Source of the DNA: an uncultured Methanosarcinales archaeon
GTDB taxonomy: Archaea > Nanobdellota > Nanobdellia > Woesearchaeales > GW2011-AR4
DNA: 27,464 bases
Direction of reading: 5' to 3'
Assembly (NCBI GenBank): GCA_964459665.1
Contig: CAYWNO010000002.1
Span: 1 to 27,464, forward strand
Part shown: in pieces, positions 190-25,485 of the stretch
Layout of the letters: every line of letters begins with the position of its first letter
Numbering within the stretch: position 1 is the stretch's first letter
Notes under the pieces: generated by a model
What the model was told of the DNA's origin: nothing
Database searches by the model: none
Seen by the model: only the letters and a program-made list of their open reading frames with translations
Made by a program: the position numbers and the translations under genes

Positions 190-356
190 GCCCTGGTAGT
201 GTAGCCTGGATCAGCGTAAAAGGCATTAATTAATGCGGATTGCTGCAGGAACTATCATGAAGCCCTGTCGTGTGTGAGGCAAGTTCTGCCCGTACGCAAA
301 AAGGCTTCGACTCGGGTTCAAAAAACTTTGTCGTGGTGAAAATCCCGACCAGGGCG
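190..356 (+). tRNA. tRNA-Asp(GTC) with three BHB introns: 211-251 (D-loop, 20/20a), 271-301 (37/38), 323-342 (T-loop, 59/60)
   Basis: Removing the introns gives GCCCUGGUAGUGUAGCCUGGA-CUAUCAUGAAGCCCUGUCG-AGGCUUCGACUCGGGUUCAAA-UCCCGACCAGGGCG. Acceptor stem 190-196/349-355; anticodon GTC at 267-269. Each junction has a BHB-type central helix (CCUG/CAGG; CUGU/GCAA, imperfect; UUCA/UGAA) flanked by 3-nt bulges. Confidence 0.93.
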
Positions 357-421
357 CTCTTATATTGAAAATAAAAATGAAAGCAAAGTTGCATCATCAC
401 TCACGTCACACGCATCTTAAT

Positions 422-585
422 GGGCCGGTAGCTCAGCCTGGTAATTTGCTCAAATTGGGCAATAGAGCACCTGTTTTTTAGATAATGTCGGGTGAAACTT
501 TTAATCAGGTGGTCGCGAGTCCGAATAACTAAAGGGAAAAATCCGCTTGGCGCGATTTTTTCATTTGGAAGTCTCGTCCGGCCCA
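422..585 (+). tRNA. tRNA-Lys(TTT) with three BHB introns: 442-462 (19/20), 474-496 (30/31), 526-571 (59/60)
   Basis: Spliced form GGGCCGGUAGCUCAGCCUGG-UAGAGCACCUG-ACUUUUAAUCAGGUGGUCGCGAGUCCGAA-UCUCGUCCGGCCCA. Acceptor stem 422-428/578-584; anticodon TTT at 500-502. Central helices GCCU/GGGC, CACC/GGUG and UCCG/UGGA each have 3-nt bulges. Confidence 0.92.
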
Positions 586-654: not shown

Positions 655-900
655 ATGAAAAAACCGAAATTTAAGTTTGACAAGCATATGCTGATTCCGA
701 AGCATTCCAAGCTTTCCGAAAAAGATAAGGCCCAGTTATTTGAAGATTATCACGCAACTCCAAAGGAGCTTCCAAGGATTATGAAGACCGATTCTGCCAT
801 AAAAGAGATGGAAGCAAAGCCGGGCGATGTTATCAGGATAATAAGAAAAAGCCCGACAGCCGGCGAGTCTGCATTCTACAGGGTGATAGTTGATGTATAA
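655..900 (+). CDS. rpoH: DNA-directed RNA polymerase subunit H (Rpo5)
   Basis: HMLIPKHSKL...LPRIMKTD...KPGDVIRIIRKSPTAGESAFYRVIV. ATG at 655 follows AAGGGG and gives 81 aa (alternative ATG 637). The ORF-track start at 547 lies inside tRNA-Lys. Confidence 0.95.
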   Translation: MKKPKFKFDKHMLIPKHSKLSEKDKAQLFEDYHATPKELPRIMKTDSAIKEMEAKPGDVIRIIRKSPTAGESAFYRVIVDV

Positions 901-4826: not shown

Positions 4827-7520
4827 ATGGTAGACATAATATCTGAATACAAGGGCAAGCTTCCTTCCAAGATACTTCAGGAAGTCGAAAAAAATCTGCC
4901 TAAAGCTACAAGCGACACTAAGCTAAGAAAGATTATGGAAGCGGTTTATGAAGAGTACAAGAATGCTTGTGTCAATCCGGGAGAAGCTGTCGGGCTGATA
5001 TCCGCTGAATCAATCGGAGAGCCGGGAACGCAGATGAGTCTTGACTATGAAGAGAAAGTAATTGTAAAAAGCCAGAATAAAATAAAAATAGTAAAAATCG
5101 GAGAATTTATTGATAAAATAATGAGCAAGGCTGGTTATGTGAAATATAAAGATACAGAAGTATGTAAGATAAATAATGCAGAATTATTTGTGCCTGCCTT
5201 AAGCCAAAATGAAAGAATAGAGTGGAAAAAAGTAACTGCGTTAAGCAGGCATAATCCCCCAGAGAAATTGCTGAAGATTACCACAAGATCCGGCAGGCAG
5301 ATAACTGCAACGCCTTATCATTCATTTGTTATAAGGAAAGACAATTGTATCATGCCTGTAGCAGGCTCAAGCCTAAAAATTGGGGATAGGACGCCTGTTG
5401 TAAGAAAAATGGTTAATTTAACAAATAATGAATTCCTTAAATTAGAGGATTATCTTCCTAAAAATCGATATATCTATGAAAGCGAGTTAAGAAAAGCCAT
5501 TAACAAGGAAGGGAATTTTGAGCTGCCAATAAAAAGCTATGAGCAAATAAACAATTATGCACAAGGCAATAATAAGTTTCAGATAAAGCAAAACTGTGTT
5601 TATATGTACCAAAACCATAGTGCCGGGCAAATACCTGAGGTTATGGAGTTAGATAGCTTATTTGGGTTCTTTATAGGAGCATATCTTGCAGAAGGAACTC
5701 ATACAGAAAATTATATTGGAATATCTAATGTTTCTGAAGAGTATTTACAGCAAGTAATAAAGTTTACAGAAAAATATTGCATAAATTACAAAATAAGGCA
5801 TGAAATAGGAGAATATGGAAAAAGCACAACCTTGCTTTTATACTCAACTTTGATTGCAGACTTGTTAAGGAAAGCCTGCAACAAGGGAGCATATAACAAG
5901 CATATCCCTGACTTTGCGTATTCTGCCAAATCCGAGTTTGCCAGCGCATTATTGAATGCTTATTTTTGTGGAGACGGGAATATCAGCGTTTCACGTAAAG
6001 TTATAAGGGCAAGCTCCTGCTCTAAACAGTTAATTGACGGTATTTCAATATTGCTTTCGCAGTTTGGCATATTTGCCGCAAAATTTGTTGGCAAAAGAAA
6101 TCAATATGCTTTATCAATCTCTTATCGCTATGCTGACCAATTTAAAGAAAAGATAGGGTTAGCCATACCGCAAAAAATGGATGCGCTTGAAAAGCTGACT
6201 CAAGCTCTAAGTTCAGGGACAAGCTATGACTCAATAGAAATGGTAGCAGGTTACGGCGATATTTTATCTAAAACAGGCAAGAAGCTTGGCGTACCGAGCA
6301 GGCTGACAGGCAAATTTACAAAAAAACAAAAAATTGGAAGACAGGCGCTTAAAAAATATATTGCCCTATTTGAAAGAAAAGCCGAAGATAAAAGCATTGC
6401 AATAGAAGAGGAATTAAAAATTTTAAAGAGAATGGCTGATTCTGACGTTGTTTGGGACGAAATCATAAAATTAGAGCATACTTGCACAACAAACGAATAT
6501 GTATATGATTTTTCTGTTGAAGATTTAGAGACATTTACGACTTTTGATGGAATTATTACCCATAACACTCTCAATACATTCCACTTTGCAGGGGTCGCAG
6601 AGATGAACGTTACTCTTGGGCTTCCTAGGATAATCGAGATACTCGACGGAAGAAAAGAGCTTGATAACCCAATGATGGAGATATACTTAAAAAAGCCTTA
6701 TGCAAGCGGCAAAAAAGTAGAGGAGCTAAGGCAGCTTGCACTGCAGATAAAAGAGACAAAATTAAGGGAAGTATCGAGAGAGCTTTCAATAAACATCGCC
6801 GATTTTACCATAGAAATAAAGCTAGACAAGGACAAGATGAAGGAGCTGGACTTAACAATCGGCAAGGTCATAGACTCAATCTCAAAGCAATTGAAGGGCT
6901 ATAACATAAGAGACAACAAGGATTCAATCATTCTTAAATCGAGAAGCAAGGAGGACACATTCAACGAGGCATACAAGACCAAGGAAAAAATCAAGAATGT
7001 GCATGTAAAAGGCATACCTGGAATTTTGCAGGTTTTGCCGGTAAGAAGAGAAAACGAATTCATAATAATAACGGCAGGCTCTAATCTTTCCGATGTGCTT
7101 CAATTGGAGGAAGTTGACGCTTACAGGACAACGACAAACAACATATTCGAGATTGAGCAGGTTCTTGGAATAGAGGCCGCGCGCCAGTCAATAGTAAATG
7201 AAATATTCAAGGTCATAGAGAGCCAGGGCCTCAATGTGGATGTTAGGCACATAATGCTTGTTGCCGATACCATGTGTGTTAGCGGAACCGTCAAGGGAAT
7301 AACAAGATATGGCGTGATAAGCGACAAGTCAAGCGTGCTTGCCCGCGCGTCTTTTGAAACCCCGATAAAGCACATAATCAATGCAGCCCTCGTCGGCGAA
7401 GTTGATAACCTAGACTCGGTTGTAGAAAACGTCATGATAAACCAGTGTATTCCAATCGGGACTGGACTTCCGAGTTTGGCGGTTAAGGCGCCTGTACAAA
7501 AACCTGTTAAGGAAAAATAA
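4827..7520 (+). CDS. rpoA2: DNA-directed RNA polymerase subunit A'' (Rpo1C) precursor with intein; spliced product 387 aa
   Basis: GEAVGLISAESIGEPGTQM | intein | TLNTFHFAGVAEMNVTLGLPRIIEI; DVRHIMLVAD; SVLARASFE; IPIGTG. Confidence 0.96.
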   Translation: MVDIISEYKGKLPSKILQEVEKNLPKATSDTKLRKIMEAVYEEYKNACVNPGEAVGLISAESIGEPGTQMSLDYEEKVIVKSQNKIKIVKIGEFIDKIMSKAGYVKYKDTEVCKINNAELFVPALSQNERIEWKKVTALSRHNPPEKLLKITTRSGRQITATPYHSFVIRKDNCIMPVAGSSLKIGDRTPVVRKMVNLTNNEFLKLEDYLPKNRYIYESELRKAINKEGNFELPIKSYEQINNYAQGNNKFQIKQNCVYMYQNHSAGQIPEVMELDSLFGFFIGAYLAEGTHTENYIGISNVSEEYLQQVIKFTEKYCINYKIRHEIGEYGKSTTLLLYSTLIADLLRKACNKGAYNKHIPDFAYSAKSEFASALLNAYFCGDGNISVSRKVIRASSCSKQLIDGISILLSQFGIFAAKFVGKRNQYALSISYRYADQFKEKIGLAIPQKMDALEKLTQALSSGTSYDSIEMVAGYGDILSKTGKKLGVPSRLTGKFTKKQKIGRQALKKYIALFERKAEDKSIAIEEELKILKRMADSDVVWDEIIKLEHTCTTNEYVYDFSVEDLETFTTFDGIITHNTLNTFHFAGVAEMNVTLGLPRIIEILDGRKELDNPMMEIYLKKPYASGKKVEELRQLALQIKETKLREVSRELSINIADFTIEIKLDKDKMKELDLTIGKVIDSISKQLKGYNIRDNKDSIILKSRSKEDTFNEAYKTKEKIKNVHVKGIPGILQVLPVRRENEFIIITAGSNLSDVLQLEEVDAYRTTTNNIFEIEQVLGIEAARQSIVNEIFKVIESQGLNVDVRHIMLVADTMCVSGTVKGITRYGVISDKSSVLARASFETPIKHIINAALVGEVDNLDSVVENVMINQCIPIGTGLPSLAVKAPVQKPVKEK
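5037..6566 (+). mobile_element. Intein with LAGLIDADG homing endonuclease (aa 71-580, 510 aa)
   Basis: Starts SLDYEEKVIVK, ends ITHN followed by Thr. Block B ITATPYHSF; endonuclease blocks FIGAYLAEGT and LLNAYFCGDGNI. Confidence 0.95.
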
Positions 7521-8153: not shown

Positions 8154-10868
8154 ATGACAGAACAAACAAAAGAACAAGCAAAGGAACAGGCAGAAGATAA
8201 AACAACAGAAGAAGAAATAAAGGAAGTAAAGGAAGCCATCGAAGGTAAGCAAGAAAAGCTTGAAAGAATAGAGCAGGAAGAGCAGCATATTTACAAGCAG
8301 GTGAGGAGCATTGCGTTTTCGGTTCTCAGCCCGAAGATGATTAAGAAAATGGCGTCTGCAAAAATAGTAACCCCTGAGCTTTACGACAAGGAAGGCTACC
8401 CTGTTGACGGCGGCCTTATGGATATAAGGCTTGGCGTTATTGACCCGGGATTAAGATGCAAGACCTGCGGCTCAAAGCTAAAGGAGTGCATAGGGCATTT
8501 TGGATATATAGAACTGGCAAGGCCAATCATACATATAAAATTCGTAAACATAATCATGACTTTGATGAAATGCACCTGCAGGGAATGCGGAAGAATATTG
8601 ATACAGGAGAGCAAGATAAGCAAAATAAAAGAAACTCTTGACCAGATTGAAAAAGGCAGCGGCGTTGAGGAAAGAAGGCAGAAAATCAAGGAGATTATTG
8701 CAAGCTTAAAGACGGTAAACAAGTGCCCGCACTGCAAGAGCAAGCAGAAGAGATTAAGCCTTGAAAAGCCAACCACATTCATAGAAGAGGAAAAAAGGAT
8801 CAGCCCCATTGAAATAAGGGCGAGGCTCGAGAAGATTCCTGATGCAGACTGCGAGATATTTGGATTAAGGGTTCCGCATGTAAGGCCCGAATGGATGATT
8901 TTTATGGTTCTTCCGATACCTCCTGTAACCATGAGGCCCAGCATAACCCTTGAGAGCGGGGAGAGAAGCGAGGATGACCTTACGCACAAGATGGGGGATA
9001 TTGTGAGGATAAACCAAAGGCTGTTTGAAAACATAAATGCAGGAGCGCCTGAAATAATAGTCGAGGATTTGTGGGACTTGCTCCAGTATCACGTAACGAC
9101 TTTTTTTGACAATAATGTTGCGCAGCTTCCGCCGGCAAGGCACAGGAGCGGACAGCCATTAAAAACCCTCACAGAGAGGATAAAAAGCAAGGAGGGAAGA
9201 ATAAGGCATAACCTTGCAGGCAAAAGAACGAATTTCTCCGCAAGGACAGTAATAAGCCCGGACCCAATGCTTGAGCTTTTTGAAGTCGGTGTGCCTTTTG
9301 TTATCGCAACAAAGCTTACAGTTCCTGAAAGAGTAAACGAATGGAACATCCAATACCTCAAGGCTTTTGTAGAAAGAGGGCATGACAAGTATCCCGGAGC
9401 AAACTACATAATAAGGCCCGACGGGAAGAAAAAGAAGATAACAGAGGAGACAAAAGAGGCTTCAATTGAGGAATTGCAGCCTGGCTACATTGTTGAGAGA
9501 CATTTGATGGACGGCGACATTGCCATATTCAACAGGCAGCCGTCGCTGCACAGGATGAGCATGATGTGCCATCGGGTAAAGGTATTGCCCGGAAAGACAC
9601 TAAGGCTTAATCCTGCCGTATGCACTCCCTACAACGCAGACTTCGACGGGGATGAGATGAACCTTCACATACCGCAGACAGAAGAAGCGAGGGCAGAGGC
9701 AGAAATCCTGATGGAAGTGCAAACGCAGCTTATATCATTAAGATACGGGCTTAGCATAATAGGGTGCACACAGGACGCAATCTCGGGCAATTACACTTTA
9801 ACCAAAGAGGATTCAATAAAAAGGGAAGAAGCCATAGACTTGCTGTCTGCAGTTGGCATCAGGGATTTCTCGAAGCTTCCAAAAAAAGCCATTGTCACGG
9901 GCAAGGAAGTTTTCGGATCCTTGCTGCCGGATGATTTTAGCTACAGCGGACACTCGCGATTATGTGACAGGTCAAAGGATAAGTGCGACAAAGATACCCA
10001 TGTCGTGGTTGAAAGCGGAAAAATGATTTCAGGAGTTATGGATAGGAGCTCTATTGGAGAGGAATCGGGATTGATGCTAAGGAGCCTTCATCAAAAATAC
10101 GGCAAGGACCGCAGCATTGATATGCTCGGAAAGATTTTCAGGCTGGGCATAGAGTATCTTTTCAGGAAAGGATTCACATCAGCATTGTCAGACACGGATT
10201 TGCCCGAGTCCGCAAAATTGAAAATGAATGAAGATCTCGATGCTGCCAAGAAGGAAGTGGACAGCCTGATTGCGCTTTTCAGGGAAGGCAAGCTCGATAC
10301 ATTCCCGGGAAAGACAATGCAGGAAACATTGGAGCTTAGGATACTTGAAGTTTTGAACAAGGCGAGAAACGAGACAGGAAGGACGGTTGCAACATACGCC
10401 GACAAAAAATCAAACACTATGGTCATGGCGGAATCGGGAGCAAGAGGCAACCTTCTAAACCTTGCCCAGATGGCTGCGTGTGTAGGCCAGCAGGCAATGA
10501 GAGGAAAGAGGATAGAAAAAGGGTTCGAGCGAAGAACCACTTCTCATTTCAAGAAAGATGATTTAAGCCCGGAAGCCCGCGGCTTTATAAGGAACGGATT
10601 CAAGACTGGGCTTACGCCTGCAGAATTCTTCTTCGGAGCAATGACCGGAAGGGACTCTTTAATGGATACAGCCTTAAGAACGCCAAAAAGCGGCTACTTG
10701 TACAGAAGGCTTGCAAACTCAATGCAGGACTTGAAAGTTGAATATGACAATACCGTAAGGGACTCTTCCAGAAAAATAATCCAGTTCGAGTACGGCGAGG
10801 ACAGCATTGATGTCTCGAAATCAGAGAATGGGGTTATTAATGTGAAGAGGATTATAAGCTCGGTTTAG
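8154..10868 (+). CDS. rpoA1: DNA-directed RNA polymerase subunit A' (Rpo1N)
   Basis: CKTC...CIGHFG Zn site, catalytic YNADFDGDEMN, bridge helix DTALRTPKSGYLYRRL; GAGGA RBS. Confidence 0.97.
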   Translation: MTEQTKEQAKEQAEDKTTEEEIKEVKEAIEGKQEKLERIEQEEQHIYKQVRSIAFSVLSPKMIKKMASAKIVTPELYDKEGYPVDGGLMDIRLGVIDPGLRCKTCGSKLKECIGHFGYIELARPIIHIKFVNIIMTLMKCTCRECGRILIQESKISKIKETLDQIEKGSGVEERRQKIKEIIASLKTVNKCPHCKSKQKRLSLEKPTTFIEEEKRISPIEIRARLEKIPDADCEIFGLRVPHVRPEWMIFMVLPIPPVTMRPSITLESGERSEDDLTHKMGDIVRINQRLFENINAGAPEIIVEDLWDLLQYHVTTFFDNNVAQLPPARHRSGQPLKTLTERIKSKEGRIRHNLAGKRTNFSARTVISPDPMLELFEVGVPFVIATKLTVPERVNEWNIQYLKAFVERGHDKYPGANYIIRPDGKKKKITEETKEASIEELQPGYIVERHLMDGDIAIFNRQPSLHRMSMMCHRVKVLPGKTLRLNPAVCTPYNADFDGDEMNLHIPQTEEARAEAEILMEVQTQLISLRYGLSIIGCTQDAISGNYTLTKEDSIKREEAIDLLSAVGIRDFSKLPKKAIVTGKEVFGSLLPDDFSYSGHSRLCDRSKDKCDKDTHVVVESGKMISGVMDRSSIGEESGLMLRSLHQKYGKDRSIDMLGKIFRLGIEYLFRKGFTSALSDTDLPESAKLKMNEDLDAAKKEVDSLIALFREGKLDTFPGKTMQETLELRILEVLNKARNETGRTVATYADKKSNTMVMAESGARGNLLNLAQMAACVGQQAMRGKRIEKGFERRTTSHFKKDDLSPEARGFIRNGFKTGLTPAEFFFGAMTGRDSLMDTALRTPKSGYLYRRLANSMQDLKVEYDNTVRDSSRKIIQFEYGEDSIDVSKSENGVINVKRIISSV

Positions 10869-10940: not shown

Positions 10941-11034
10941 AGCCCCGTAGTGTAGCGGTCAATCTCCCGTTAAGGAAGACTAAGCATACGAGCCTCTGGA
11001 GCTTGTGACGGCAGTTCGAATCTGCCCGGGGCTA
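10941..11034 (+). tRNA. tRNA-Gln(CTG) with a 21-nt D-loop intron (10963-10983, 21/22)
   Basis: Spliced 73-mer AGCCCCGUAGUGUAGCGGUCAA-GCAUACGAGCCUCUGGAGCUUGUGACGGCAGUUCGAAUCUGCCCGGGGCUA; anticodon at 10996-10998; central helix GGUC/GACU with 3-nt bulges. Confidence 0.92.
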
Positions 11035-15376: not shown

Positions 15377-15409
15377 TTGAAAAATTCGCCTGAAAAGCGA
15401 ATTTTTCAA
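15377..15409. repeat. Family-1 palindrome TTGAAAAATTCGCCTGAAAAGCGAATTTTTCAA
   Basis: Same core as 17434-17466; contains the TGA stop of the MNT-HEPN gene. Confidence 0.9.
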
Positions 15410-17432: not shown

Positions 17433-17473
17433 GTTGAAAAATTCGCCTGAAAAGCGAATTTTTCAAAGTTCTC
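17433..17473. repeat. Family-1 palindrome overlapping the trmB stop codon
   Basis: GTTGAAAAATTCGCCTGAAAAGCGAATTTTTCAAAGTTCTC. Confidence 0.9.
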
Positions 17474-25438: not shown

Positions 25439-25485
25439 TATAAGTTGAAAAATTCGCTTGAAAAGCGAATTTTTCAAACTTCTCT
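25439..25485. repeat. Family-1 palindrome
   Basis: Inverted near-copy of 14023-14069. Confidence 0.9.

Follow-up and report, generated by a model that had tools for sequence, protein, structure and literature searches.

Two adjacent tRNA genes near the start of a contig, each broken into four pieces, raise the question whether they are functional genes and, if so, by which enzymes their transcripts could be spliced. The window, i.e. the whole stretch of 27,464 nucleotides that was analysed, is contig C2 of a genome of 1.56 Mb (193 contigs, 92% complete, 40% G+C). The nearest relatives by RpoB'' are MAGs labelled Woesearchaeota, Nanoarchaeota or Nanoarchaeia, and the DNA runs that contain the locus are exclusively groundwater metagenomes. 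Because the spliced products form cloverleafs, orthologs exist, the introns covary, no other copy was found, genes for EndA, RtcB and archease are present and a strict screen solves both loci, we favor the view, at a probability of about 90%, that these are functional single-copy genes with three BHB introns each, whose transcripts would be cut by an alpha-type EndA and joined by RtcB.

Structure of the locus

The features at the start of the window are the following.

190-356, plus strand: tRNA-Asp(GUC), exons 190-210, 252-270, 302-322 and 343-356, discriminator G356
211-251, plus strand: Asp intron 1, 41 nt, D-loop, position 20/20a, relaxed HBh' (H 4/4, h 1 bp, h' 5 bp)
271-301, plus strand: Asp intron 2, 31 nt, canonical position 37/38, near-strict hBHBh' (H 3/4, h 7 bp, h' 5 bp)
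323-342, plus strand: Asp intron 3, 20 nt, T-loop, position 59/60, hBH (H 4/4, h 5 bp from the T-stem, h' 0)
422-585, plus strand: tRNA-Lys(UUU), exons 422-441, 463-473, 497-525 and 572-585, discriminator A585
442-462, plus strand: Lys intron 1, 21 nt, D-loop, position 19/20, HBh' (H 4/4, h 0, h' 5 bp)
474-496, plus strand: Lys intron 2, 23 nt, anticodon stem, position 30/31, hBH (H 4/4, h 4 bp, h' 1 bp)
526-571, plus strand: Lys intron 3, 46 nt, T-loop, position 59/60, strict hBHBh' (H 4/4, h 5 bp, h' 2 bp)
590-640, strand not given: A/T-rich hairpin with oligo-T runs between tRNA-Lys and rpoH, from reading the sequence a likely terminator
655-900, plus strand: rpoH (Rpb5 C-terminal domain; Pfam PF01191, E=1e-25)
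890-2380: rpoB'', which together with rpoH was the synteny anchor for finding orthologs

Only 189 nt of the contig precede tRNA-Asp; the gene upstream of it in relatives is usually glyA-like, as identified by eye, and accompanied by variable small ORFs. Downstream, the RNA polymerase genes (4827-7520 and 8154-10868 included) follow in the order rpoH, rpoB'', rpoB', an rpoA''-like ORF (Rpb1 domain 5), a 172-aa ORF without a Pfam match and rpoA' (Rpb1 domains 1-4). The A'' part thus precedes A', the inverse of the usual archaeal order, and the rpoA''-like ORF contains an intein with a LAGLIDADG domain.

Standard gene finders were blank at the locus, as the initial annotation had predicted: ARAGORN reported nothing at 190-585, and Rfam did not match a tRNA anywhere in 100-700 with the cut-off relaxed to E<=10. 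The six introns were located exactly at the positions proposed in that annotation by a BHB scan, by ARAGORN on the spliced products and by the orthologs described below, and their excision yielded clean cloverleafs. The spliced Asp product of 75 nt was called Asp(gtc) by ARAGORN and is a regular cloverleaf; inspection by hand and the BHB scan identified the acceptor stem GCCCTGG/CCAGGGC, the anticodon stem AAGCC/GGCTT and the T-stem TCGGG/CCCGA as well as U8, A14 and the D-arm. Likewise, the spliced Lys product of 74 nt was called Lys(ttt) with a regular cloverleaf, an acceptor stem GGGCCGG/CCGGCCC and A as the discriminator.

The T-loop of tRNA-Lys (520-526) reads TCCGAAT with C55 replacing U55, the pseudouridine-55 site, which is nearly universal. 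C55 is present in tRNA-Lys of 17 of 19 close relatives; more distant Lys orthologs have a T-loop of TTCGAAT. An assembly error is not the cause, since the close clade has C55 fixed, genes lacking the T-loop intron included.

BHB geometry of the six introns

A BHB motif was defined on the 5' side by h, a 4-nt strand of the central helix H, a 3-nt bulge that is cut after its second base, and h', with the mirrored arrangement on the 3' side. All six introns have this geometry. The central helix is fully paired (4/4 bp) between two 3-nt bulges in five of them, the exception being Asp 37/38 (3/4) with one mismatch, C32.A. An outer helix h or h' of at least 2 bp is present in every case. When a perfect 4-bp H and two outer helices of at least 2 bp are required (strict hBHBh'), only Lys 59/60 fully qualifies. 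Asp 37/38 falls short by its H of 3/4, and the remaining four lack a full h or h' and thus are relaxed motifs. Five of the six introns are at non-canonical sites (20/20a and 59/60 in Asp; 19/20, 30/31 and 59/60 in Lys), which agrees with the initial annotation. The two 59/60 introns had been described as unrelated and indeed have no similarity to each other. A blastn-short search for paralogs of the six introns elsewhere in the genome was negative; thus there is no sign of recent transposition.

In each primary transcript the three short introns would fold with flanking exon bases into BHB motifs. The D-loop introns have central helices CCTG/CAGG (Asp 20/20a) and GCCT/GGGC (Lys 19/20). Just past an A14.A21-type mismatch lies the D-stem, which could serve as a distant outer helix of an HBh' motif, in Asp across mismatches and in Lys by stacking past A14.A21. 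In the T-loop introns (H = TTCA/TGAA in Asp and TCCG/TGGA in Lys) the intron's 3' end pairs with positions 54-57, the outer helix is provided by the T-stem and the 5' cut site is open towards the intron loop; they would be presented as hBH motifs with little or no inner helix.

The Lys 30/31 intron differs in that its H (CACC/GGTG, positions 25-28 with the intron) is flanked by an h of AGAG/CTTT, in which positions 21-24 pair with 32-35. Cleavage at this site would need an alternative, non-cloverleaf fold of the pre-tRNA that competes with the D-stem, and from this motif splicing would be expected to be sequential, with refolding.

Several observations count against functional genes: the relaxed motifs of four of the six introns, the mismatch in Asp 37/38, C55, the approximately 8% of the genome that is unassembled, and two T6 runs within Lys introns 2 and 3 (474-479 at the start of intron 2, and 556-561). 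Judged by their sequence, the T6 runs could be archaeal termination signals that attenuate transcription. Furthermore, alpha4-type enzymes are regarded in the literature (PMC5829648) as poor at cutting relaxed motifs.

Orthologs of the two genes

A search with RpoB'' yielded 80 loci, among which tRNA-Asp was found in 72 and tRNA-Lys in 74, upstream of rpoH/rpoB with order and orientation kept. Hence the Asp-Lys-rpoH layout recurs in more than 70 Woesearchaeota genomes; each gene has zero to three introns, which fall on seven recurrent sites, and gene lengths range from 73-74 nt up to 316 nt.

The intron-less orthologs scored 54-72 bits against the Rfam tRNA model. For Asp, the intron-less genes of L075 and L027 (54 bits) match the spliced product at 67/75 and 66/75 positions, respectively; for Lys, those of L025 and L059 (72 and 69 bits) match at 68-69/74. 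Among the close relatives (clade L001-L020) the spliced Lys exons are identical at 74/74 positions in 17 of 19 genomes, and the same Lys genes carry one to three introns in different sets and with unrelated interiors. Relatives without Lys intron 1 read AGCCTGGTAGAGC, which fixes its splice junction.

The 282 insertions collected from the orthologs were examined for BHB pairing. For Asp, 26 were at 20/20a in the D-loop, 40 at 37/38 and 63 at 59/60; for Lys, 42 were in the D-loop, 22 at 30/31, 32 at 37/38 and 47 at 59/60. A fully paired central helix (4/4) was present in about 79% of the 282, compared to 22% upon random placement with the same nine allowed shifts. Among orthologs, the ends of the introns that contribute to H and the bulges are conserved.

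The pairing was also counted at the individual sites. In the 26 orthologs with the Asp 20/20a site filled, H2-H4 and h'1-h'4 were paired in 26/26. The Asp 37/38 intron of 40 orthologs had h'1 paired in 36/40 by five pair types, i.e. compensatory variation, and the Asp 59/60 site, filled in 63 of 72 orthologs, had H1-H3 paired in 63/63. Among 41 distinct Lys D-loop introns H1-H3 were paired in 41/41 and H4 in 40/41, with h' covarying over up to six pair types. All eight H and h positions of the Lys 30/31 intron were paired in each of the 22 orthologs that have it, and this intron and the Lys 37/38 intron never occurred together in one ortholog. Taken together, the inner helices of D-loop and canonical introns stay paired via four to six pair types; h' of the T-loop introns is near-random, which makes them consistently of the hBH type.

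The orthologs also bear on the possibility that the cloverleafs are an artefact of choosing six splice sites freely in an AT-rich intergenic region. A free choice is indeed permissive. An unconstrained SPLITS-like screen produced 581 solutions accepted by ARAGORN at 38 of 331 anchored loci, many of them spurious and at random anchors and some absurd, such as a four-intron 'tRNA-Stop'. This screen was dropped and replaced by a strict cloverleaf filter, whose yields are a lower bound. The filter left one anticodon solution per locus, and the Asp and Lys loci were each solved uniquely. Because of the permissiveness of free splice-site choice, the argument for more than chance rests on the orthologs: 72-74 other genomes have the exon blocks in unchanged order and orientation, with other insertions or none. 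This series effectively refutes an artefact, to which we assign next to no probability.

Copy number and the tRNA set of the genome

The initial annotation had named intron-less Asp(GTC) and Lys(TTT) genes elsewhere, together with no spliced product from this locus, as the finding that would refute it. Such a refutation did not emerge. Searches of the 92%-complete assembly with blastn, intron-allowing ARAGORN and Rfam found no second Asp(GUC) or Lys(UUU) gene, and the mature sequences matched only the exon blocks of contig C2 in blastn; strictly speaking, the approximately 8% of the genome that is unassembled could hold one.

This bears on whether the two loci are decaying pseudogenes, with the working tRNAs either located in the missing part of the genome or provided by a host. 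DPANN archaea are host-dependent, ~8% of the genome is missing, and C55 as well as the T6 runs of the Lys gene would fit with decay. Yet the exons are invariant or nearly so across more than 70 species while the introns drift, BHB pairing is kept by compensatory change, and in other species the genes at this syntenic position are tRNAs without introns. C55, too, is fixed in the close clade irrespective of the T-loop intron, which speaks against decay. Thus we consider pseudogenes very improbable and retain the view that both genes are functional.

Genome-wide, 16 tRNAs were above the gathering score of Rfam, and ARAGORN reported 20, several of which were miscalled. The strict screen uniquely solved 17 loci, a lower bound, with at least one intron in 15, at least two in six and three introns in three, i.e. 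Asp, Lys and Ser(GGA). An intron at 59/60 was present in seven of these 17 loci, again as a lower bound. Two essential decoding functions, and probably more than half of the tRNA set of this genome, escape standard annotation. Hidden tRNA genes of this kind distort estimates of completeness and claims of 'missing tRNAs' for DPANN genomes.

An example of a miscalled gene is located in the window at 10941-11034, where ARAGORN called tRNA-Leu(aag). A better reading is tRNA-Gln(CUG), which has A as the discriminator and pairs A1 with U72. In its D-loop an insertion of about 19 nt (approximately 10964-10982) shows a weak BHB, with an H of 3/4 and an h' of 3, and the Rfam score of the gene, 21 bits, is below threshold.

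The splicing endonuclease

The initial annotation had expected an endonuclease of the broad-specificity (alpha-beta)2 or epsilon2 type. The genome encodes EndA by a single ORF of 202 aa (G000:C113), in which the only PF02778 and the only PF01974 match are both located. A paralog was not found in the genome by phmmer --max, although the same query detects the beta subunit of N. equitans EndA in the PDB at 2e-13. A weak PF01974 match on contig C20 (E=0.24) was considered as a second subunit and rejected; by eye it is an aRF1-like ORF adjoining a methyltransferase-like ORF.

The closest solved structures are the alpha subunit of N. equitans (3IEY_A, 3e-35) and the alpha4 EndA of M. jannaschii (1A79, 2e-30). 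Pairwise sequence alignment with 1A79 was ungapped over residues 54-202 and showed that the Tyr-His-Lys triad is kept, with Y138, H148 and K178/179 aligning with the M. jannaschii enzyme. In the alignment with S. tokodaii EndA (2CV8) there was a 10-residue gap at the presumed crenarchaeal loop (CSL), the position of which was assigned by reading. In the alignment with 3IEY_A six Lys-rich residues ahead of the catalytic His are absent, which correspond to the loop at 90-98 of the N. equitans alpha subunit (PMC3488258).

EndA thus has the one N-terminal and one catalytic C-terminal domain in a single polypeptide that are characteristic of alpha4-type enzymes of about 170-200 aa; two subunit genes or a three-unit protein of ~390 aa, and a specificity loop, as in (alpha-beta)2 and epsilon2 enzymes, were not found. 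By its sequence EndA is alpha4-like and neither (alpha-beta)2 nor epsilon2, and from the gene count it presumably is a homotetramer. The expectation of the initial annotation therefore was abandoned.

That expectation would be preserved if EndA were heteromeric, either (alpha-beta)2 or a three-unit epsilon2 enzyme, and its second subunit had been missed. Relaxed BHB motifs are known to be cleaved by such enzymes (PMC3239211, PMC5829648), and a genome that is 92% complete could lack the gene of a second subunit. However, both Pfam matches fall into the same ORF and the phmmer query is sensitive enough to detect a beta subunit. In addition, EndA was found in 35 of 40 relatives searched in the genus and order, with ORFs mostly of ~180-250 aa and exactly one in each genome, including a closed one-contig genome that is 100% complete. 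A missed subunit therefore appears unlikely, albeit less so than pseudogenes. We favor the single alpha-type EndA, which would cut in both bulges of the BHB motifs; RtcB, with archease encoded alongside, would then join the exons to give tRNAs of 75 nt and 74 nt.

In Woesearchaeales the highly conserved core of EndA is preceded by a Lys/Glu-rich N-terminal tail of very variable length, from 0 to ~70 residues (L081:1180-1278; L082-L087). This tail may be an RNA-binding extension.

An insertion in rtcB

The genes of rtcB and archease are adjacent on contig C48. The rtcB gene is interrupted by an insertion of 33 nt with an in-frame TAG (G000:C48:11169-11201, minus strand). It separates the H codon from the W codon in the conserved motif MPDGH|WGYGFPIGGV, and its removal restores the frame exactly. 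The insert has a BHB-like fold with an H of 3/4, 3-nt bulges and an h' of 5 bp. At the same site, three other genomes of the genus have a 33-nt intron with compensatory changes in h'. Seven nucleotides downstream, five genomes of the genus have an HBh' intron of 30-33 nt; two of these introns are 31 nt long, so that read-through is not possible. At codon 100, two genomes of the genus carry an insert of 12 nt; seven are without any insert. By sequence, the 33-nt insertion is a candidate tRNA-type intron, located in the very mRNA that encodes the splicing ligase. The nearest published case that we found is the intron of crenarchaeal cbf5 (PMC2738675).

Comparison with known systems

Multiple non-canonical BHB introns in archaeal tRNA genes are a known phenomenon; the present case is a Woesearchaeote, for which the comparative support is exceptionally good. 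In Thermoproteales, tRNA genes with multiple introns were reportedly described by Sugahara in 2008. Thermoproteales have up to three BHB introns per tRNA at recurrent non-canonical sites (D-loop, anticodon stem, 59/60) with relaxed motifs, and the genes are missed by standard finders (PMC4033280, PMC4390854), all of which resembles the locus described here. Their EndA belongs to the (alpha-beta)2 class with a Crenarchaea-specific loop, however, and intron transposition between genes has been reported, whereas here we found a single alpha gene without the loop and no intron paralogs.

ARMAN-2 (Ca. Micrarchaeum; PMC3239211, PMC3488258, PMC12397907) likewise belongs to the DPANN and has relaxed T-loop BHB introns that a permissive EndA must cut. 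Its epsilon2 EndA is a three-unit protein of 395 residues with an ASL loop, in contrast to the 202-aa enzyme, which has no insertion at that position compared to M. jannaschii. In M. kandleri, a D-loop HBh' intron and a 37/38 intron share one tRNA, and EndA lacks a specificity loop. This EndA, however, is an (alpha-beta)2 enzyme and cuts the D-loop intron poorly in vitro, and the relaxed intron is the one exception in M. kandleri, while here relaxed introns are the rule.

A close precedent is the work of Kaneta et al. 2018 (NAR, PMC5829648), which links the alpha4-type EndA of DPANN to many disrupted tRNA genes, includes one Woesearchaeota genome in its survey and attributes broad specificity to an 'L3' loop. 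The single-subunit alpha4-type EndA, the many non-canonical or multiple introns and the incomplete tRNAscan-SE tRNA sets reported there are all like our findings. On the other hand, the EndA described here, as judged from our pairwise alignments, is without the 6-residue Lys-rich insertion of the N. equitans type. That paper contains neither the ortholog series nor the turnover counts given here.

We tentatively propose, at slightly less than even odds, that Woesearchaeales remove relaxed HBh' and hBH introns from the D-loops, anticodon stems and T-loops of tRNA, and apparently from rtcB mRNA, with a plain, loop-less, single-subunit alpha4-type EndA whose range is set by an undescribed determinant. 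If so, this determinant might be the variable Lys/Glu-rich N-terminal tail, subtle changes of the active site or a non-homologous partner, and intron proliferation would not be tied to loop insertions in general, contrary to the accepted view. The model of EndA/intron co-evolution can be tested concretely on this combination of abundant relaxed introns with an EndA that is loop-less and encoded by a single gene.

Intron turnover

Turnover was estimated by unrooted parsimony on a FastTree of RpoB'' with 81 rows, a quick tree of a single gene. The minimum numbers of presence/absence changes for Asp were 11 at the D-loop site, 18 at 37/38 and 4 at 59/60; for Lys they were 17 at the D-loop site, 4 at 30/31, 21 at 37/38 and 19 at 59/60. 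The total minimum over the seven sites was 94 changes, a count that is inflated by errors of the single-gene quick tree. Turnover is fast, since genomes with RpoB'' sequences that are ~90% identical differ in intron content. The initial annotation had postulated a high rate of intron gain. High turnover with at least 94 changes is borne out by the data, but not gain in particular, because unrooted parsimony does not tell gain from loss. With its invariant exons, the Asp-Lys-rpoH locus provides an unusually clean natural series for the turnover of BHB introns and for what a BHB must retain.

Compared to a median of ~33 nt, some orthologous T-loop introns are far longer, with 131-212 nt at Asp 59/60 in L001, L016, L038 and L006 and at Lys 59/60 in L039. 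Their length may be due to nested introns or to elements inserted into them.

A palindrome of 29 nt that is found genome-wide has a diverged copy in the Lys 59/60 intron, whose interior (536-562) it makes up. Without this copy the intron would be ~19 nt long, similar to relatives. Among the 282 ortholog introns the palindrome occurs in two, the other being the Asp 59/60 intron of L016. The perfect palindrome has the arms GAAAAATTCGCTT and AAGCGAATTTTTC; further copies in the window are at 15379-15407, 17436-17464 and 25447-25475, and the family has 53 copies in the genome versus 0 in shuffled sequence. Possible identities of the palindrome are a bidirectional terminator and a REP-like element with an occasional insertion into T-loop introns.
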